DNA from: a virus
Taxonomy: Duplodnaviria > Caudoviricetes
Length of the DNA: 64,000 nucleotides
Strand: one strand, 5' to 3'
Virus record (IMG/VR): IMGVR_UViG_3300033075_000927
Location: 14,404 to 78,403 of that record
Positions 5,354-60,685 of the stretch are shown in pieces; position 1 is the stretch's first letter, and each line of letters starts with the position of its first letter. Position numbers and translations under genes: made by a program. The notes under the pieces are model-generated. The model was not told the DNA's origin, ran no database searches, and worked only from the letters and a program-made list of their open reading frames with translations.

Positions 5354-5379
5354 TGTACCACCTAAAACGGTGGTACAAT
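5354..5379 (+). promoter_or_regulatory. extended -10 promoter (TGGTACAAT) overlapped by a 9-bp inverted repeat
   Basis: TGTACCACC-taaaac-GGTGGTACA; the same CGGTGGTACAAT occurs at 60091-60102. Confidence 0.5.
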
Positions 5380-8942: not shown

Positions 8943-9237
8943 GATGCAAGGGGCAGGTGACGGGCTTATGCTCGGCAGTACGTTTCCTGGTCAGGACTTC
9001 TTCAAACCGAACACCGTCTACGAAGTGGAGAGATTCTGCGGCGTAGTGACTATCCGAGAAGTCGGCAAGGCCTGCGGATTCGAGAAAGGTGACGACCCTG
9101 ACGACAGGCACAGCTTCCTGAAGAGGCTCTTCAACTGGGCCGAGGAGATACAGGTGCTGCTCGTTGCCCGTGGCTCGAAGTTGTTTATGACGCGGGAAGA
9201 ATTTGATAGAGTACATGAAACTGTGAGGTACGATTGA
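8914..9237 (+). CDS. hypothetical protein
   Basis: RBS aaggag; overlaps the polA start. Confidence 0.7.
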   Translation: MKPIARIVTRMQGAGDGLMLGSTFPGQDFFKPNTVYEVERFCGVVTIREVGKACGFEKGDDPDDRHSFLKRLFNWAEEIQVLLVARGSKLFMTREEFDRVHETVRYD

Positions 9238-12200
9238 TGAAAGTTCTAGTTGATGTAAGCAGTCTAATCAAGACCTGCCTGTACGCCGGAAAAGACCCAG
9301 AAGCGATTCTGGCGTCTGACGGCTCTCAAGTAAGCTCTGCGCGATGGGGTTACGACAACACGGTCAACTCCCTGGTGGCCACCTTGGACTACCTCAAATG
9401 TGTGCCATCCGACATCGTGTTTGCTGTGGAGGGGTTTCACAGCAAGTCCCGTCGCCAGCACATCGACAAGGGGTACAAGCAGGACGCGAAGCCGAAGGCT
9501 CCTGAGATGTTCGAGCAGTTCAATGAGGCCAAGGTCCTGGTGCTTGGGGCTTTCCGCAGGTTGGGCTCCATTCAGGTGACCCAGGACGGCGTGGAGGCTG
9601 ACGACATTATCGCCTGGTTCTGCACCCACACCAAAGAGGACACCGTCATCGTCTCGAATGACGGCGACCTGTGCCAGCTGCTGGGGCCCAATGCTCACGG
9701 CGCGAACATCGCCGTCTACCGGACGCACGGCGTGCAGCGCGAAAACCCTTACGGCGAGTTCTCGCCCAAGAACATCCTGGTCTACAAAGCCACGGTCGGG
9801 GATTCGTCCGACAAGATCAAGGGTGTGCCCGGCTTTGGCCCAGCCAAGTTCCAAGCCCTGCTGGAGCGCTTCGGTGACGACGGCCTGACTGAGCTGCGCC
9901 GCCTGGGCGACGAGGGCTCGCTGAGGGAGCTGTACGAGCAGGCCAGCACCGAGCCGCTGGTCCAACGCCTGGTGGACGGTGAGGAAAACTACCTGACCAG
10001 CTTCCGACTGGCCAAACTCTACCCGGAGTGGTGCAACACGCTGCACCAGCCGCTCGTGTGGACACCAGGCATGGTGGCGGGGTCTACTGAGGACCTGCGG
10101 CTGAAGAAGTGGGAATCCGCCCGCCGACTGGTCACAGCCGACAAGTGGGAGGCCTTCAAGCCTTGGGCTACTCGCAACATCGGTGGCTGGATGGCCCTGG
10201 ACATTGAAACCTCCACACCGGACGAGTCGGACGATTGGCTGGCCGCCCAAGATGACAGCAAGGGTGTGGACGTGATCGGCTCGAAGCTGTCTGGCATGTC
10301 GCTGACCTTCGGCCCCAACAAGCAGTACACCGTCTACATCCCGGTTGACCACGTTGACACAGACTGCGTGAAGTCGGAAGACCTGCGCGACTTCATCGCG
10401 TCGCTGCACGGCGTGACGAAGGTGATCCACAACACCCAGTTCGAGGGCACCGTCCTGTTCAACGAGTGGGGTGCCGAGTGGGCCGACAACGGGTTCCACG
10501 GCTACCTGCCCAATTGGCTGGACACCAAGTTCGAGGCCTCATATGTGGACGAGAACTTCTCACTGGGCCTGAAGAAACTGTCGAAGAGGTGGCTGGACTA
10601 CAACCAGGTGGACTACGACACGGTCACCACCCTCGAAGGTGAGCCAGGCTCTCTGAAGGGTGGGCGGCTGCTGGGCGAGTTCAAGAAGTGTGTCAAGGAG
10701 GCGGTGACGCGGGTGGCGACGCAGGAGGATGTGATCTGCGCCGACGAGTTTGGCCTCGACGAAGTACACCTTGGCGACACCATCGAAGTCAGCCCCGCCG
10801 AATTCGTGATGGTCGAACGCCGCCAGTACAAGATGCGCGAACTCAGCGCCCAGCACGTCTTCGACTACGCCTGCGACGACACGGTCACCACTGCAGCCCT
10901 GCACAATTTCTTCAAGCTGATCATGCAGCTTGAGGGAACTTGGCAGACCTATCTGGACGTGGAAATTTCCGCCTCCTACCTGCACACCCAGTCGTTTGTT
11001 CAAGGCGTTCCAATTGATTTGGCCAAGTTGCAAGAGTTGCGTGAGATTGACGACAAGACCTATGACGAGGCCTGGGCCAAGCTCTCCGCCTACCTGATGA
11101 CCAAGGGCTGGGATGGCTGCCTGCCGCCAGTCTACGACGGCGAGCCCACGCCGAAGCAGATCAAAGAGGCCTTCACCATCGTGACCGGCGAGGAGCTGGA
11201 GACGGCGGTACGCAAGCTCGACCGGCTGGCCGACGCCGTGGAAGCAGGCGGAAGCCTGGCGATGGCGGAGCTGATCCGCAACCGCGACTGGGAGTCGTTC
11301 AAGACCTTGGTGCTGCAGCACTTCGACGGCCAGCCGAAGTTCAATCCAGGCTCTCCGAAGCAGATGCAGCGCCTCTTCTACGAGGTCATGGGCCTGCCGG
11401 TGCGGGTGTTCAACGCCCCCACCGCCACCATGCGTGCTAAGGGCATCAAGCAGGGCACACCACAGACGAACGAGCTGGCCGTCAAGTATGCGATGCTTGA
11501 GGCTGGGCCGGAGGAAGCCGCTGCGCTGGAGGCAATCCGCCTGATGAAAATGGTGAGCACTAGGCGAGGCCTGTACTACGACACCTACCCGTACTTCGTA
11601 CACTGGAAGACTGGGCTGGTACACAGCTCACATAACCAATGTGCCACGAACACTAGACGAGCATCCTCCGCAAAGCCTAACGTACAGCAACTCGCTAAGC
11701 ACGAGAAGGTGAAAGGATTTGCGGCCAGGTTCCGCGAAGTAATCTCCCCGCACAAGAAGGGCGCTGTGGTGGTATCTATGGACTTCTCGTCCCAGGAGAT
11801 CCTGCTGCTGGCCGAATGGTCTCACGACCCTGTGCTGGAGCTTGCCTTCACTGGCGACCCACCGCTTGATATGCACAGCAAGACTGGGGTCGGTATCTGG
11901 AACCGCACCAATGAGCCGCTAACTTATGAGGAGTTTAAGACTATAGTTGATAACCAGTCGCACCCACTACACAAGAATATCAAGAAAGCGAGAGCTCTAG
12001 GTAAGACTGTGAACTTCGGAGCACTCTACCGTATGGCTGCTAAGAAGGCTGCCTCTGTGATGCTAGTTACTGAAGAAGAGGCGCAGGCGAGTTTGGACGC
12101 AAAAGCGGAGGCCTTCCCTGTGTCCGAGGCTTGGGCGCTGAGAGAGATGGAGATCGTCAAGGAGGCCGGGATCAGCAAGACCCTGCTCGGGGCGGTACGC

Positions 12201-12584
12201 CACCTCGGGCCAGCACTCCTGTCGGAAGACAAATACGAGGCTGTAAAGGCGGAGCGACAAACCTTGAGCTTCAGAATTCAGGGTTCTGCCGCTGAAATGA
12301 CCAAGCAGGCTGAGGGTGCCATGTGGGACATGGGTCTAGTTCAGAAGTATGATTGCAGAGTGTACTTTCCCGTGCATGATGAAGTGGTAGCTTCTGTTGT
12401 TGTTTCAGACTTAGAGCCGTTCCTACTAGATATGCACAAGGCGATGGTCAGGCCCTACGCTAACATGCGGTTGCCGATCCGGTCTTCTGTATCGTTCGGC
12501 CCGTCGTTTGGGGAGCAAATCGAAGTGGGCAACGTGGGCACACCAACCCTTGAGGAGATTCGCGCAGCCGTGGCGAAGTTGTGA
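9234..12584 (+). CDS. polA: family A DNA polymerase with fused 5'-3' exonuclease and 3'-5' exonuclease
   Basis: 5' nuclease motifs GVEADD, SNDGD, GDSSDKIKGVPGFG; exo LDIET, HNTQFE, YACDD; pol A DFSSQE, B KTVNFGALY, C VHDE. Confidence 0.95.
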   Translation: MMKVLVDVSSLIKTCLYAGKDPEAILASDGSQVSSARWGYDNTVNSLVATLDYLKCVPSDIVFAVEGFHSKSRRQHIDKGYKQDAKPKAPEMFEQFNEAKVLVLGAFRRLGSIQVTQDGVEADDIIAWFCTHTKEDTVIVSNDGDLCQLLGPNAHGANIAVYRTHGVQRENPYGEFSPKNILVYKATVGDSSDKIKGVPGFGPAKFQALLERFGDDGLTELRRLGDEGSLRELYEQASTEPLVQRLVDGEENYLTSFRLAKLYPEWCNTLHQPLVWTPGMVAGSTEDLRLKKWESARRLVTADKWEAFKPWATRNIGGWMALDIETSTPDESDDWLAAQDDSKGVDVIGSKLSGMSLTFGPNKQYTVYIPVDHVDTDCVKSEDLRDFIASLHGVTKVIHNTQFEGTVLFNEWGAEWADNGFHGYLPNWLDTKFEASYVDENFSLGLKKLSKRWLDYNQVDYDTVTTLEGEPGSLKGGRLLGEFKKCVKEAVTRVATQEDVICADEFGLDEVHLGDTIEVSPAEFVMVERRQYKMRELSAQHVFDYACDDTVTTAALHNFFKLIMQLEGTWQTYLDVEISASYLHTQSFVQGVPIDLAKLQELREIDDKTYDEAWAKLSAYLMTKGWDGCLPPVYDGEPTPKQIKEAFTIVTGEELETAVRKLDRLADAVEAGGSLAMAELIRNRDWESFKTLVLQHFDGQPKFNPGSPKQMQRLFYEVMGLPVRVFNAPTATMRAKGIKQGTPQTNELAVKYAMLEAGPEEAAALEAIRLMKMVSTRRGLYYDTYPYFVHWKTGLVHSSHNQCATNTRRASSAKPNVQQLAKHEKVKGFAARFREVISPHKKGAVVVSMDFSSQEILLLAEWSHDPVLELAFTGDPPLDMHSKTGVGIWNRTNEPLTYEEFKTIVDNQSHPLHKNIKKARALGKTVNFGALYRMAAKKAASVMLVTEEEAQASLDAKAEAFPVSEAWALREMEIVKEAGISKTLLGAVRHLGPALLSEDKYEAVKAERQTLSFRIQGSAAEMTKQAEGAMWDMGLVQKYDCRVYFPVHDEVVASVVVSDLEPFLLDMHKAMVRPYANMRLPIRSSVSFGPSFGEQIEVGNVGTPTLEEIRAAVAKL

Positions 12585-12701
12585 TAAGATGGCAGCTTGA
12601 ATCTTGAACTCAGGCTGCTGCAACAGTATTAGTTCAGGGTTTACTCCCTGCGGGTTCGATTGGAGGTGTTGCAGCACCGACTTTCGAGCCCGTTTTCTTT
12701 T
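12582..12701 (+). ncRNA. structured leader RNA element A (C4/CI-like) with promoter and terminator
   Basis: TGATAAGAT extended -10; hairpin loop CTGCAA; hairpin CAGGG/CCCTG; stem CGGGTTCGA/TCGAGCCCG holding loop TTGCAG; U-tract; RBS. Confidence 0.55.
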
Positions 12702-12711
12702 GGAGATCGAA

Positions 12712-13314
12712 ATGCCAGATACAGCTGACACAGACGGAGCTAAACCAAAAACTGCCGGTGAAGCTGACACCTCAGAAGCAGGCATGCAGGCGTACATGCT
12801 CAAGCACTTCTACTTTTGCGAGGCTATTAAGGGGCTTCGTGTCAAGGAGAAAAGGCACTTCAACGGCAAGGAGGTCGGAGAGCCAGCCGGAAGTCCTACA
12901 CACTACGGATACCGACAGATAAATGTGTTCGGTAGACCGCACCTAGAGCACAGACTTGTATGGCTGATGTGTAAAGGGCACATGCCAACCCTAGAGCTGG
13001 ATCACGCTGATCAGGATAAGTTGAATAACCACATCTCCAACCTTAGAGAAGTGACACGGTCACAGAATAGCCAGAACAAGGGTAAGCAGAGTAACAATAA
13101 ATCCGGCAGAGTAGGGGTTCACAGGTCCGTAGACAGGTGCGGTAACGCATCCTGGATAGCCCAGATATGGGTAGACAATAAATATCGGAGCAAGACTTTC
13201 AGCTGTAATAAGTATGGCGAGGACAGTGCCAGGGATCAGGCCCTCTCTTGGAGAAGCCTGGCAGAACTCAACTTACACACTCACAGACCGACACAACCCA
13301 CGGAGCAGATATGA
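12712..13314 (+). CDS. free-standing HNH endonuclease (HNH_3 plus AP2-like tail)
   Basis: HRLVW...LELDHADQDKLNNHISNLR; start at ATG 12712 after GGAG. Confidence 0.85.
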   Translation: MPDTADTDGAKPKTAGEADTSEAGMQAYMLKHFYFCEAIKGLRVKEKRHFNGKEVGEPAGSPTHYGYRQINVFGRPHLEHRLVWLMCKGHMPTLELDHADQDKLNNHISNLREVTRSQNSQNKGKQSNNKSGRVGVHRSVDRCGNASWIAQIWVDNKYRSKTFSCNKYGEDSARDQALSWRSLAELNLHTHRPTQPTEQI

Positions 13315-14248: not shown

Positions 14249-14370
14249 TGGTAAACTTTGCGACAGGGCGTTCCCGCACCGGCTGTCGCAAAGCCTTGCA
14301 GTGCGGGAGGGTCTTGACCTTCTGGGCTGAATCGGCGTGTTGCGACCACACCGTTTCGGCCCTTTCTTTT
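14249..14370 (+). ncRNA. structured leader RNA element B (C4/CI-like) with promoter and terminator
   Basis: TGGTAAACT extended -10; loop GTCGCAA; stem GGGCTGAA/TTCGGCCC holding loop TTGCGAC; TTTCTTTT; RBS. Confidence 0.6.
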
Positions 14371-14380
14371 GGAGAATCGA

Positions 14381-15016
14381 ATGCAATCAGTAAAGTTAGT
14401 ATGGGCTACACCTGAAATTGACAGGCACCTGGCGTACATCGCCCGTGTGAGCAACCCTGAGAACCAGGAAAACGAAAACATCGTGGGACTTCTGCGCTAC
14501 ATGCTGCGCAACGGCCATGTCAGCCCGTTCGAGATGAGCCACATGTGCGTGGAGATCAACACCACACGAGACATTGGCCGACAAATTCTGCGCCACAGAT
14601 CGTTCTCGTTCCAGGAATTTAGTGGCCGCTACCAGTCCTATGACAAACTTCCGGCAGCCGAGTTTCGCGAGTGCCGACTGCAGGATGCCAAGAATCGGCA
14701 GAACAGTCTGCACACAGACGACGCTGAGCTTGCTGAGCAGTGGCACTGCCGCCAAGGTGTGCTGCTGGCAAAGGCTCAGCAGACCTACCAGTGGGCACTT
14801 GATCACGGCATCGCCAAGGAGCAGGCCCGCGCGGTGCTGCCGGAAGGCTTGACACCATCCCGCCTGTACATGGTGGGCAGCCTGCGCAGCTGGATTCACT
14901 ACCTGAAGTCCAGGCTCGACCCGTCCACGCAAAAAGAGCATCGCCTGATCGCCGCCGAGGTTCAGGCGATTCTCCGCGAGCTGGCTCCAGTGGCTGCGGA
15001 GGCTGCCGGTTTATGA
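14381..15016 (+). CDS. thyX: flavin-dependent thymidylate synthase
   Basis: GHVSPFE and ThyX motif QILRHRSFSFQEFSGRY; ARAVLP; QKEHR. Confidence 0.95.
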   Translation: MQSVKLVWATPEIDRHLAYIARVSNPENQENENIVGLLRYMLRNGHVSPFEMSHMCVEINTTRDIGRQILRHRSFSFQEFSGRYQSYDKLPAAEFRECRLQDAKNRQNSLHTDDAELAEQWHCRQGVLLAKAQQTYQWALDHGIAKEQARAVLPEGLTPSRLYMVGSLRSWIHYLKSRLDPSTQKEHRLIAAEVQAILRELAPVAAEAAGL

Positions 15017-17368: not shown

Positions 17369-17571
17369 TAGCCTACTGCACCAACTGCCGGCACTACCAG
17401 CCTCCGGCAAAGTCACACGGGGCTGGCCAGTGTCTGGCAGTATCCTTGCCCGCCATCACCGCCAGGGCTCAGGCCTGCGGCACCTTCGGCCACCTGTTTG
17501 AGGCAGCTCCTTTGCACGCTGCGCACCCAAGGATGGTAAAAGGGCCAACAAAGAAGAGGAAATCACCGTGA
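17350..17571 (+). CDS. small Cys-rich protein
   Basis: CTNCRHY...C...C pattern. Confidence 0.6.
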   Translation: MAHSKVIAYCTNCRHYQPPAKSHGAGQCLAVSLPAITARAQACGTFGHLFEAAPLHAAHPRMVKGPTKKRKSP

Positions 17572-17696
17572 ACAGCGTATCGCCACACAGTTACTTCGCC
17601 TACCCGGAAGCCTTCGTACCTGGAGCTGCCATGCTCGTCAATGCAGCATTTGCCACTGTGGGCTGGGGCATCAGTGACCAGACGCTTGGCTTATGA
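17568..17696 (+). CDS. micro-ORF A1 (42 aa, MNSVSPHSYFAYPEAFV...ATVGWGIS)
   Basis: GTG start overlapping the upstream TGA, RBS aagagga; translated by hand; not in the ORF track. Confidence 0.55.
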   Translation: MNSVSPHSYFAYPEAFVPGAAMLVNAAFATVGWGISDQTLGL

Positions 17697-17836
17697 CACC
17701 GGCTACTGAGCCTGTTGAGCAGTGCAACTGCGCATCCTACTATCTGTCGTACCACCCAGACACGATTACGCTTGTGTTCAGAATCATCCGACCGGTTACC
17801 CGCATCAGACCCGCCAGAGAGCGACTACTACCATGA
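17693..17836 (+). CDS. micro-ORF A2 (47 aa, MTPATEP...FRIIRPVTRI)
   Basis: ATGA overlap at both ends; translated by hand. Confidence 0.55.
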   Translation: MTPATEPVEQCNCASYYLSYHPDTITLVFRIIRPVTRIRPARERLLP

Positions 17837-17967
17837 CACCTTCATTCGATACCTCCACACTTTACTGCCAAACAATAAAAACTACTGTGCATGGGTGGGT
17901 GTACGTTTCGCGTGAGTTCAGAGACGTAGGCCGTAACATCGTGCCGCTGATCGGACTTGTGCTGTGA
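17833..17967 (+). CDS. micro-ORF A3 (44 aa, MTPSFDT...)
   Basis: ATGA/GTGA overlaps; translated by hand. Confidence 0.55.
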   Translation: MTPSFDTSTLYCQTIKTTVHGWVYVSREFRDVGRNIVPLIGLVL

Positions 17968-18143
17968 CACCAGCCTACTCCGTAACTAGCCAGAGCTACA
18001 GCTCACACTACATACAGTATCCGCTAGATGGCTGCGACGCGCAGGCGCTGGTGTATGCAGGCATACGAGAAGTGTTCTTGAAATCACCATTAAGATGGAC
18101 TTTACTACAATGGCACCAGCCCACTTCAGCCTCGGCTGTTTAA
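17964..18143 (+). CDS. micro-ORF A4 (59 aa, MTPAYSV...)
   Basis: GTGA overlap; same TGACACC start as A2 and A3. Confidence 0.5.
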   Translation: MTPAYSVTSQSYSSHYIQYPLDGCDAQALVYAGIREVFLKSPLRWTLLQWHQPTSASAV

Positions 18144-53268: not shown

Positions 53269-54153
53269 TTACTTTGCCAGCAGTAACTGGTTCAGGTTCG
53301 CTGACCCGCTCCATGTTGCAGTCGTTTGGCCTGTTACGCGGTTCAACGACATGTTGATATGGTTTCTTGCGAAGGCTTTTGCGGCTGATACTGGGGCGCT
53401 GACCTCCGAAGTCAGGTGTGTAACAAACACCGGATTGGTCACCAGGGAATACGGCATGTATTTCATGCGCCAGTTCAGGGATACGGCTTCAAGTTCCTCT
53501 GGCGTAGGCTCTGGCAAGGGCTTCTTGCCTGCCTGCTTGCGGGCAGCTACAAGTTCTTTCAGGTAGCTCTGTGCAAGTTCTTCAACAGCTGCCCAGGATT
53601 GGTGCTGATCGTAGTCTGACACTTCGCCCAGCATTTCCAGCATGCCGATAAGGTCTGGTCTGCCGTACTTGCGCAAGAGTTGGACAGTGAGGCGTTTGAT
53701 TCCTTCAGGGCCGTGGCCTGCCTTGCAGGCGAGAATGTCCATGATGGCAATGTCTTGCTTCAACATGTTGAAGTTGACGCTATCAAGGGCTTTGTAGTTC
53801 TCGACAGCTCTTTCGGCTGCGCCCTCTATCAGGTCTTTGAGGACTTGCGGGGCGATGTATTGGCCATTGACCTGGGTCTCAAGCTCTTGCCAGCGGTCAA
53901 TGATCTTGGCACGCATCGTTACGCTGTAACCAGTGATCAGGATGTAGGTCTCTCGCTTGGGCAGAGTGAAGAACTCATACTCGTTCCCTCTCTCCGTTTT
54001 GTACGCTCCTGAAAAGTCAGGAGCGTGGAGTTCGAGATCAGACATCATCTGCCGAATGTCGGCCATGACGTTATCGTGGCGCTTGCCGGTCAGCTCAGCG
54101 ATTTCGCGACTGGTCATGGTGAGGGTTTCGGGAATCATGGAAAGTTCGGACAT
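53269..54153 (-). CDS. rha: Rha-family phage regulatory protein
   Basis: MTSREIAELTGKRHDNVMADIR...Y..ERGNEY..F.LPKRET.ILITGYS..MRAKIIDRWQELE. Confidence 0.9.
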   Translation of the reverse strand: MSELSMIPETLTMTSREIAELTGKRHDNVMADIRQMMSDLELHAPDFSGAYKTERGNEYEFFTLPKRETYILITGYSVTMRAKIIDRWQELETQVNGQYIAPQVLKDLIEGAAERAVENYKALDSVNFNMLKQDIAIMDILACKAGHGPEGIKRLTVQLLRKYGRPDLIGMLEMLGEVSDYDQHQSWAAVEELAQSYLKELVAARKQAGKKPLPEPTPEELEAVSLNWRMKYMPYSLVTNPVFVTHLTSEVSAPVSAAKAFARNHINMSLNRVTGQTTATWSGSANLNQLLLAK

Positions 54154-54165
54154 TTTGCTCTTTCT

Positions 54166-54300
54166 AAAGGCAAAAGACCTCACCTGCGTCCTCACCACTT
54201 TCGTGGAGTTGGCAGAACGGTCGCAACAACCGCCAGGACGCATGTGAGGTCTCTGTTGCGTGGATTTGCTCCCTGCCAAGGGAGTGCGTGGATTATACCA
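54166..54300 (-). ncRNA. structured leader RNA element C (C4/c4-a1b1-like) upstream of rha
   Basis: TGGTATAAT promoter; nested stems AGACCTCAC/GTGAGGTCT and TGCGTCCT/AGGACGCA; cross-complementary CGCAACA/TGTTGCG and TTGGCAG/CTGCCAA; U-tract. Confidence 0.65.
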
Positions 54301-54306
54301 GAAAGC

Positions 54307-54334
54307 GAGCTCGGCTGAAAAGTCAGCCGAGCTC
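54307..54334. promoter_or_regulatory. operator-like palindrome over the rha -35 region
   Basis: GAGCTCGGCTGA-aaag-TCAGCCGAGCTC; core CTGAAAAGTCAG also at 54009-54020 inside rha. Confidence 0.6.
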
Positions 54335-60090: not shown

Positions 60091-60139
60091 CGGTGGTACA
60101 ATGCAAAAACCTCGACAGGTTCCAGCCTGTCGAGGTTTT
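60091..60139 (+). promoter_or_regulatory. HNH promoter TGGTACAAT plus 14-bp inverted repeat
   Basis: AAAACCTCGACAGG-ttccag-CCTGTCGAGGTTTT; the RBS is further enclosed in a CTGAAA/TTTCAG hairpin. Confidence 0.6.
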
Positions 60140-60169
60140 CTAAACCCACTGAAAATAGGAGTTTCAGAG

Positions 60170-60685
60170 ATGTCTGAACATAGTATAGCACACCCAGAAC
60201 TCACTGCAGAGAAGTTGAGAGAGCTTCTTCATTACGACCAAGTTTCTGGGATTTTCACATGGAAAGTGCGCACGTCTAGGAGTGTCAAAGTCGGCAACCT
60301 AGCCGGTAGCGTGGATGGAGACGGCTACCTGCGAGTCATGGCACTTAGCCGAAGATACCAAGCCCACCGCCTCGCATGGCTCTATATGTACGGAGTTTGG
60401 CCTGAAGGCCAAATAGATCACATTAACAGAATAAGAACTGATAACCGAATCGCTAATTTGAGAGAAGTAACTAACAAGCAGAACCACCAAAACAGGAGTA
60501 AGCCGAGCAACAACACATCAGGACACTCAGGCGAGAGCTGGTACAAGCGTGACTCCAAGTGGGTAGCCAAGATTACGCATAACTACAAACACACCCACCT
60601 CGGCTACTTCGAGAACCTAGAAGAAGCAATCGCAGCCCGCAAAGCCGCCGAGAAACTTTACTGGGCAGACACCTACACCACCTAA
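60170..60685 (+). CDS. free-standing HNH-AP2 endonuclease
   Basis: LTAEKLRELLHYD..SGIFTW; AHRLAWLYMYG.WP...IDHINRIRTDNRIANLR; HLGYF..LEEAIAARK. Confidence 0.92.
   Translation: MSEHSIAHPELTAEKLRELLHYDQVSGIFTWKVRTSRSVKVGNLAGSVDGDGYLRVMALSRRYQAHRLAWLYMYGVWPEGQIDHINRIRTDNRIANLREVTNKQNHQNRSKPSNNTSGHSGESWYKRDSKWVAKITHNYKHTHLGYFENLEEAIAARKAAEKLYWADTYTT

Follow-up and report, generated by a model that had tools for sequence, protein, structure and literature searches.

A family of portable leader modules in uncultivated phages combines a promoter-like box, a folded RNA with covarying long-range pairings and a terminator-form hairpin

What is the folded leader directly upstream of thyX in an uncultivated phage genome, and how might it affect the gene behind it? 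The stretch of DNA analysed here, hereafter the window (64,000 nucleotides, nt), comprises bases 14404-78403 of the 78,403-base IMG/VR virus record IMGVR_UViG_3300033075_000927, and the leader in question, module B, lies in it between a DNA ligase gene and thyX (Table 1). We found that module B belongs to a previously undescribed family of portable phage modules, each combining a predicted promoter, a folded leader RNA, a terminator-form hairpin and a ribosome site. As judged from its sequences, the leader family is real, conserved, structured and of unusual design, and its regulatory logic is what we infer. Specifically, module B may be one copy of a portable module whose leader acts as a cis transcription attenuator and whose upstream segment, seq1, insulates it, a tentative reading to which we assign a probability of roughly 45%. 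Within this reading, the complementarity between a leader loop and the terminator hairpin probably decides whether transcription continues into the next gene.

An earlier note on this DNA had listed a box, two stems with complementary loops and a third copy of the code in leader B, and all of these motifs are present (Table 1). RNAfold recovered both hairpins, H1 (-23.1 kcal/mol, z score -2.3) and H3 (-22.6 kcal/mol, z score -3.8). H3 (GGGCUGAA...UUCGGCCC) is followed at once by UUUCUUUU, which is the form of an intrinsic terminator, and the hairpin with its U-run resembles other terminators of the genome. With the U-run abutting the Shine-Dalgarno (SD) sequence, polymerase can reach the downstream gene only by way of the terminator hairpin. 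Once upstream sequence was included, helix H0 (seq1 with loop 1 and its flanks) became the minimum-energy fold; seq1 lies across the predicted transcription start, and its full length would be present only in read-through RNA.

The window genome contains three modules (A, 5' of an HNH gene; B, 5' of thyX; C, 5' of rha), and about 15 further modules were found before other genes in metagenomic relatives. The copies came from the contigs (labelled L and a number) of ThyX relatives at 94-73% identity in public assemblies and from one metagenome pattern scan. Sequence data for the relatives are in runs SRR28031030, ERR9698290 and SRR32678454, assembly GCA_050655955.1 and analyses ERZ28614906 and ERZ15185088. 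The B type occurs in eleven distinct sequence versions, 6 of them with an intact 5' half, and stands before three different coding sequences, each joined at the same module end, GGAGAAT. The A type precedes an HNH gene, a Rha-like gene and a gene of unknown function, and the X type, from two more distant phages, precedes a pRha gene (L215) and an HNH gene (L217). Three further C-type leaders, reached through Rha homologues, precede Rha and Bro-N genes. All members share one order, namely a TGnTAnnnT box, a 5' hairpin, then a hairpin and U-run of terminator form, and an SD sequence with ATG. Hairpin and U-run take the terminator form in A, L214, L217 and all C types as well, and in L215 the U-run begins 3 nt past the stem. 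Relatives at 79-83% ThyX identity are without the complex leader, yet have a simple hairpin and U-run at the same site. The earlier suggestion that such leaders stage replication operons is thus too narrow, as modules also precede HNH endonuclease, Rha, Bro-N and unknown genes.

These members alone were matched by a covariance model based on the A, B and X types. The PolA-level relatives L200-L207 (43-50% identity) share the module order and showed no A- or B-like element, by eye or with the covariance model; ThyX relatives in IMG/VR (64-67% identity) had no such leader, the ligase had no relatives there, and blastn against the phage collection returned only thyX-level matches. The H3 pattern gave 7 true B-type copies among 18 matches in metagenomes, no match in IMG/VR and chance matches only in bacterial genomes, the C-type pattern had no match in bacterial genomes or IMG/VR, and a loose pattern (TTTCTTTTGGAGANNNNAATG) gave chance matches only. 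Taken together, the two pattern scans placed the family in no other IMG/VR contig and in none of the genomes, one for each of 185,579 bacterial and archaeal species. Rfam 15, which includes the C4 antisense RNA, riboswitches and small ribozymes, had 0 matches in the whole window at the gathering threshold; around A, B and C at E values up to 10 it returned only chance-level eukaryotic long non-coding RNAs and microRNAs and unrelated plasmid antisense or small RNAs, far below the cut-offs. By these null results, this class of structured RNA is known to date from uncultivated phages alone. Two other explanations of the region were rejected: a group I intron, suggested by the HNH gene near polA and thyX (PolA is complete and no intron model matched), and a small open reading frame (variants differ by insertions and deletions, and conservation is at the nucleotide level).

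The family is held together by pairings whose letters differ and whose complementarity is kept. In B the leader carries GUCGCAA and the terminator UUGCGAC; the corresponding pairs are UGCUGCAACA and UGUUGCAGCA in window A, UGCGGCAACA and UGUUGCCGCA in the A-type leader of L214, and GUACCAG and CUGGUAC in L215 and L217. All are exact complements, and in every case 34-39 nt separate the complement of the terminator loop from the terminator stem that follows it. There are at least four codes in the A/B/X type, in addition to three in the first and two in the second of the C-type pairings described below. Taken alone, the loop match of B is weak, as 3.6% of dinucleotide shuffles had a 7-nt complement of the terminator-loop region somewhere in the upstream 79 nt; the corresponding figures were 0.035% (A), 4.6% (C) and, in two relatives, 6.4% and 1.7%. 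In a model-based alignment of 8 distinct A/B/X sequences, by comparison, every cell of the seven loop-loop pairs was canonical (100%) and four of these pairs changed on both sides, which makes L1:L2 cleaner than any other helix. Across the whole structure, 88% of cells were paired (35-50% with the partners slid). Seven stem pairs of H3 also changed on both sides, and H2 kept a GGG/CCC core in all A/B/X types with little covariation (84.8% of cells paired). Individual differences follow the same pattern. Between window A and the L214 leader, one L1:L2 pair changes from U-A to G-C and one upper-stem pair of H3 from G-C to U-A; L233 carries two compensatory pairs in the H1 stem (CCCGCAC/GUGCGGG to CCCCUAC/GUAGGGG), L235 a repaired C.A mismatch in H3 and L239 a change from U.G to C-G in H3. 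The substitutions in L210 and L213 fall in unpaired positions, and a C-to-U change in the seq1 pairing of L210 retains a G.U pair. The structure can be assigned to the sense RNA, because its many G.U pairs would read as A.C in RNA from the opposite strand.

The C-type leaders, which have a conserved GNRA hairpin, keep two long-range pairings. Pairing 1 joins the H1 loop to the single-stranded segment J inside the terminator domain (UUGGCA/UGCCAA, UUGACC/GGUCAA or UUGACG/CGUCAA), and pairing 2 joins S2 to the loop of an inner hairpin (CGCAACA/UGUUGCG or CCAAUA/UAUUGG) and switches as a whole. Across four sequences, the 28 pairs of P3, the two inner hairpins and pairing 1 were 100% canonical, with 14 changed on both sides, as compared with 31-40% paired in slid controls. 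MAFFT alignments shifted the A-type stems and the C-type S2 by one column, so we examined S2:loop pairing in each sequence separately and did not use the pair counter for it. The percentages for both the A/B/X and the C types should be read with the sequences being few and related and the alignments having been partly fitted to the structure. The claim of a leader family with one topology and different, mutually compensated loops therefore holds both within the genome and across relatives. In L246, two C-type leaders share pairing 2 and differ in pairing 1. At the site directly 5' of the promoter box, each C-type relative has a different hairpin.

The B copies are unusually alike. Over the 142-nt element, the window differs from L210 or L213 at 1-2 positions (98.6-99.3% identity), compared with 85-86% identity in the adjacent thyX and 69-70% at its third codon positions. 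Homology between B copies starts only about 8 nt 5' of the -10 box and extends to GGAGAAT, and the last 58 nt, from H3 to the tail, are identical in 5 of the 6 B-type relatives compared and match at 57 of 58 positions in L239, including copies before other genes. The 3' 78 nt of B are 70% identical to the element A region before the HNH gene. This near-identity suggests strong constraint, recent spread, or both.

Such copies raise the question of whether the modules are chiefly joints for recombination at the DNA level. T4-type phages have conserved composite early-promoter/stem-loop motifs (PeSLs) at the insertion/deletion borders of hyperplastic regions, which are probably recombination joints (PMC2839356, PMC4122927). 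By analogy, loop complementarity would play no part in regulation here, and the hairpins would be ordinary terminators and stabilise 5' ends. The polA-thyX interval is indeed hyperplastic, holding HNH, Rha-like, ligase, methylase, pRha or small genes or nothing, depending on the phage, and modules are found at the edges of the HNH, Rha, ligase, methylase and pRha insertions or replacements; the fully identical B terminator and tail stand before three different genes, and hybrids exist (the L1-less variant described below, L219 with a ligase fragment behind thyX, and L246a with mixed C-type codes). Like PeSLs, the modules are composite promoter and terminator elements flanking variable genes, and the C type even has the terminator-then-promoter order. 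Unlike PeSLs, they lie in a siphovirus-type genome and not in a T4-like myovirus, span 130-190 nt with a multi-hairpin leader of three to five helices instead of one stem-loop and an early promoter, place the promoter before the terminator in the A, B and X types, and contain covarying long-range pairings that have no PeSL counterpart. Recombination requires sequence identity and not compensated loop changes, whereas the loop pairings are the best-kept helices (100% canonical) with differing letters, and the G.U pairs make the structure strand-specific. A joint role can coexist with an RNA function and does not replace it, and we consider it quite unlikely as the chief explanation.

The box at the start of each module fits TGnTAnnnT in 9 of 9 module variants (TGGTAAACT, TGCTAAAAT, TGGTAAAAT, TGATAAGAT, TGATAAAAT, TGGTACAAT, TGGTACACT, TGGTATAAT and TGCTATAAT), with TG, TA and the final T invariant and the remaining positions variable. 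There is no good -35 element upstream of it. This is what an extended -10 promoter of the sigma-70 type without a -35 element would look like, which makes the box a candidate promoter. Three more intergenic sites of the genome carry TGGTAYAAT, in each case with a hairpin behind it. At two of the intergenic TGGTAYAAT boxes (window 5371-5379, plus strand; genome 3286-3294) a hairpin begins within a few bases and has no U-run. At window 60094-60180 (plus strand), a perfect hairpin set between an A-run and a U-run (AAAACCUCGACAGG...CCUGUCGAGGUUUU) comes directly after TGGTACAAT and precedes an SD sequence and a second HNH gene, repeating the promoter-hairpin-gene order in a simple form with one hairpin.

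The covariation between leader and terminator suits two interpretations, one being that the terminated RNA forms a tertiary kissing contact and the other that an antiterminator helix forms as an alternative. In the attenuator model, RNA would start at the extended -10 promoter, run through a structured leader of about 100 nt and reach the terminator hairpin with its U-run, followed by the SD sequence and start codon of any following gene. During transcription, before the 3' strand of the terminator exists, L1 would pair with the apex or interior (L2) of the terminator hairpin, and this L1:L2 antiterminator would enclose or sequester the terminator 5' strand and delay closure, so that some polymerases could continue into the gene; at equilibrium the terminator fold would prevail. 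In the modules that lie within operons (B, L215 and L217), a seq1 copy lies across the -10 box or start and would be present only in RNA arriving from upstream. There, seq1 may capture L1, so that read-through transcripts would terminate and locally started ones could pass, as in an insulated cassette. The C type carries a separate upstream hairpin and T-run and no seq1, which fits an insulating role for seq1 within operons.

We modelled unfinished RNAs cut just before the terminator 3' strand. From the predicted start, the probability of L1:L2 pairing was 0.61 in B, 0.70 in A and 0.69 in L217; with upstream sequence including seq1 it was 0.004 in B and 0.0 in L217. In unfinished C-type RNA, the L1:J helix, accompanied by pairing between the H1 3' strand and the inner part of the terminator 5' strand, had probabilities of 0.78-0.94 in 4 of 4 leaders, and one step earlier the S2:loop helix had 0.82-0.94 in 3 of 4. 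H1-based and antiterminator folds were isoenergetic at this stage (-38.4 versus -38.5 in B; -28.0 versus -29.0 in A). The modelled folds of unfinished RNA thus favour the antiterminator in the four C-type leaders, window B (not L233), window A and L217. We therefore favour a kinetic attenuator in which the leader would invade the terminator interior, and in which seq1 would serve B and L217 as a decoy found only in read-through RNA.

Several points weigh against this attenuator. Support from unfinished RNA is uneven, the probability of L1:L2 being about 0 in L233, 0.03 in the A-type leader of L214 and 0.06 in L215. Upstream context raises L1:L2 pairing in both A-type leaders, for which we rejected a uniform rule that seq1 blocks the antiterminator. 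The pairing targets the terminator apex and spares the basal stem next to the U-run, and there is little transcription time between L2 and the terminator 3' strand. For full-length RNA, the nested L1:L2 helix came out at probability 0 and 8-11 kcal/mol less stable than H1 plus H3, so that at equilibrium the pairing could exist only as a kiss. L1 is also dispensable in five contigs (Table 1). They carry a B variant that has lost the central 30 nt, covering loop 1 and the H1 3' strand, and has in their place about 64 nt that fold into a different long hairpin. In this variant the promoter box and H3 are unchanged, and the insert carries UUCAGC, complementary to the H3 5' strand GCUGAA. Finally, the covariation rests on 8 and 4 distinct, related sequences, and the near-identity of B copies could reflect recent spread and not constraint.

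Some of these points would suit a different product. The main transcript could be the terminated RNA of about 105-125 nt, with the pairings serving as tertiary kissing or pseudoknot contacts of a compact small RNA that may act in trans on read-through copies or other modules. It would then be a dual-function small and messenger RNA, or a leader-derived antisense RNA, whose variable codes set specificity. There is precedent for both forms. Gifsy-1 IsrK consists of a promoter, a short structured RNA and a Rho-independent terminator, read-through produces the messenger RNA of the next genes, and the short form can act on the long form with an effect on translation; in P4, the leader-derived antisense CI RNA causes premature termination (PMC4825925). 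The modules have the promoter-short RNA-terminator-gene order of IsrK, to which they have no sequence relation and which lacks loop-to-terminator covariation. The placement of the promoter about 100 nt before a strong terminator, the dominance of the terminator fold in full-length RNA, the constant spacing from L1 to H3, the code shared in trans by B and C and the shared pairing 2 in L246, and the wholesale code changes between close relatives are all consistent with a small RNA. Against it, the SD sequence and ATG abut the U-run before at least 7 different genes that have no promoter of their own, which makes a cis role in gene expression unavoidable. By our estimate, two hairpins of about 14 bp each with a linker of about 16 nt also leave little steric room for a 7-bp coaxial kiss, neither C4 nor any other Rfam family matched, and no sign of a temperate lifestyle turned up, with no search aimed at one. 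We therefore regard a small RNA as the main product as somewhat unlikely, and continue with the attenuator as the favoured reading.

The P1/P7 c4 RNA, like the P4 RNA, is a leader-derived antisense RNA that brings about premature termination. The earlier note had compared leader B to the P4 seqA/seqB/seqC arrangement, and as regards layout the likeness stands: an antisense flanked by two targets in one leader exists in B (seq1, L1 and L2), has equivalents in L215 and L217, where the first copy is UGGUAC inside the -10 box, and takes a different form in A. Moreover, the short codes differ between relatives by compensating changes, and the elements precede rha/ant-like genes among others, as in P4 CI and c4. 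Membership of the P4 CI/P1 c4 family did not hold up, as the modules match neither Rfam C4 nor another family in sequence or structure, and their downstream target lies inside the terminator hairpin, not at the ribosome site.

The modules share with the trp-type 1-2-3-4 attenuators and the bgl/sac ribonucleic antiterminator (RAT)/terminator attenuators a leader that lies between promoter and gene and ends in an intrinsic terminator, an upstream segment able to pair with an earlier segment or a terminator part, and an outcome that would be set during transcription. They differ in the antiterminator partner, which is the terminator's apical loop or interior and not the 5' strand of its basal stem, and they have no leader peptide, known binding protein or known ligand. 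The input proposed here is which promoter made the RNA, and the whole unit is a mobile cassette. In the kissing-loop platforms of cobalamin riboswitches and the IncB/IncI-alpha rep pseudoknot, a sensing or 5' loop likewise pairs with the loop of a regulatory hairpin; unlike these, the modules have no conserved ligand-binding core or antisense gene, and the signal is a terminator. A metabolite riboswitch does not fit, as unpaired positions are not conserved between types and the downstream genes are thyX, HNH, rha, bro and unknowns.

The folded leader might instead be a site for protein recognition or processing, with loop-loop stacking creating the substrate for RNase III, a phage antiterminator or an RNA-binding regulator. 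RNase III cuts between cistrons in T7, and the intergenic position in a long polycistronic early/middle region, the conserved GNRA hairpin of the C type and the isoenergetic H1 and antiterminator folds, which would suit a balance-tipping factor, agree with such a role. The genome encodes no Q-type antiterminator domain, and the unpaired positions show nothing conserved across types that could be a common protein site. We consider this very unlikely.

The codes of different modules are related. Loop 1 of B is complementary to UUGCGAC in the inner loop of C (54228-54220, minus strand), and S2 of C is fully complementary to UGUUGCG in the terminator loop of B (14338-14346). A shares the 6-nt core GCAACA/UGUUGC with both. 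The proposal of orthogonal switches is thus contradicted by the full cross-complementarity of B and C and by the core shared with A. A more far-reaching idea, which we rate as unlikely, is that the modules are self-recognising cassettes, in which the code would pass RNA from the own promoter and the decoy would stop RNA from upstream, and whose leaders may cross-talk in trans in a phage-specific network that discriminates self from co-infecting relatives. Such cross-talk is suggested by codes that are common within a genome (B and C; the C-type pair of L246) yet different between related phages.

If the attenuator reading is true, the modules would represent a new attenuator design, in which a leader invades the apex or interior of its terminator. 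They would be natural compact, portable and insulated cassettes that move accessory genes, such as homing endonucleases and Rha/Bro regulators, through a phage replication module, and would join RNA switches with the recombination joints of hyperplastic phage regions, which are usually treated apart. They would also provide a naturally diversified set of 6-10-nt RNA codes that can be tested for specificity.

The genome around the modules is siphovirus-like, with a tape measure protein of 2541 amino acids, a large terminase and a major head protein; its G+C content is 57%, and no phage RNA polymerase was seen in it. Module B is surrounded by a plus-strand replication and recombination block (Table 1), in which ThyX was assigned by its Thy1 domain (E = 7.5e-37).

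Table 1. Features of the three modules, the L1-less B variants and the block around module B. Positions refer to the window unless a contig label is given; genes of the block are in order.
Feature	Position	Strand	Remark
B: extended -10 promoter-like box TGGTAAACT	14249-14257	+	fits TGnTAnnnT
B: predicted transcription start	~14263-14266	+	
B: seq1 (TTTGCGACAG; also written UUUGCGACAG)	14257-14266	+	third copy; 10-bp pairing with loop 1 and flanks (helix H0)
B: hairpin H1	14272-14308	+	stem TCCCGCAC (14272-79) / GTGCGGGA (14301-08)
B: apical loop L1 GUCGCAA	14285-14291	+	in inner hairpin GGCT-GTCGCAA-AGCC within H1
B: small hairpin H2	14307-14322	+	GAGGGU CUUG ACCUUC
B: hairpin H3	14324-14362	+	stem GGGCTGAA (14324-31) / TTCGGCCC (14355-62)
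B: apical loop L2 UUGCGAC	14340-14346	+	of H3
B: U-run TTTCTTTT	14363-14370	+	directly 3' of H3; with H3, intrinsic-terminator form
B: SD GGAG	14371-14374	+	
B: thyX start codon ATG	14381-14383	+	
Module A	12582-12714	+	before HNH_3+AP2 gene
A: box TGATAAGAT		+	overlaps polA stop
A: H0 5' strand	12592-12600	+	
A: L1	12616-12625	+	
A: terminator hairpin H3	12651-12692	+	L2 at 12667-12676
A: U-run	12693-12701	+	
A: GGAG	12702-05	+	
A: ATG	12712	+	
Module C	54151-54334	-	before rha
C: upstream hairpin and T-run	54334-54307	-	12-bp perfect hairpin directly 5' of rha promoter box
C: box TGGTATAAT	54300-54292	-	
C: H1 loop UUGGCA	54279-74	-	
C: S2 CGCAACA	54260-54	-	single-stranded
C: long terminator stem P3	54251-54176	-	encloses loop hairpin, J and GAAA hairpin
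C: hairpin loop UGUUGCG	54228-22	-	within P3
C: segment J UGCCAA	54214-09	-	within P3
C: U-run	54175-66	-	
C: ATG	54153	-	
L1-less B variant	L214:3833-4003		
L1-less B variant	L219:1735-1907		
L1-less B variant	L232:564-718		
L1-less B variant	L238:92-246		
L1-less B variant	L239:592-746		
Helicase		+	
Primase		+	
PolA	9234-12584	+	
HNH_3+AP2 endonuclease gene	12712-13314	+	
ATP-dependent DNA ligase	to 14216	+	
ThyX	14381-15016	+	
RecU-like protein		+	
Mre11/SbcD-like phosphoesterase		+	
SbcC-like ATPase		+	

Three minor observations concern gene arrangement. In L219 (positions 700-980), the 3' end of a ligase gene lies directly after thyX, a rearrangement adjoining a module. Many short open reading frames begin with ATGACACC, overlapping the preceding stop (window 17568-18143; genome 1-14400). 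In the distant relative L206 (9360-10790; PolA 43% identical), GAAAGGAACTTTC recurs just 5' of several start codons with no hairpins.

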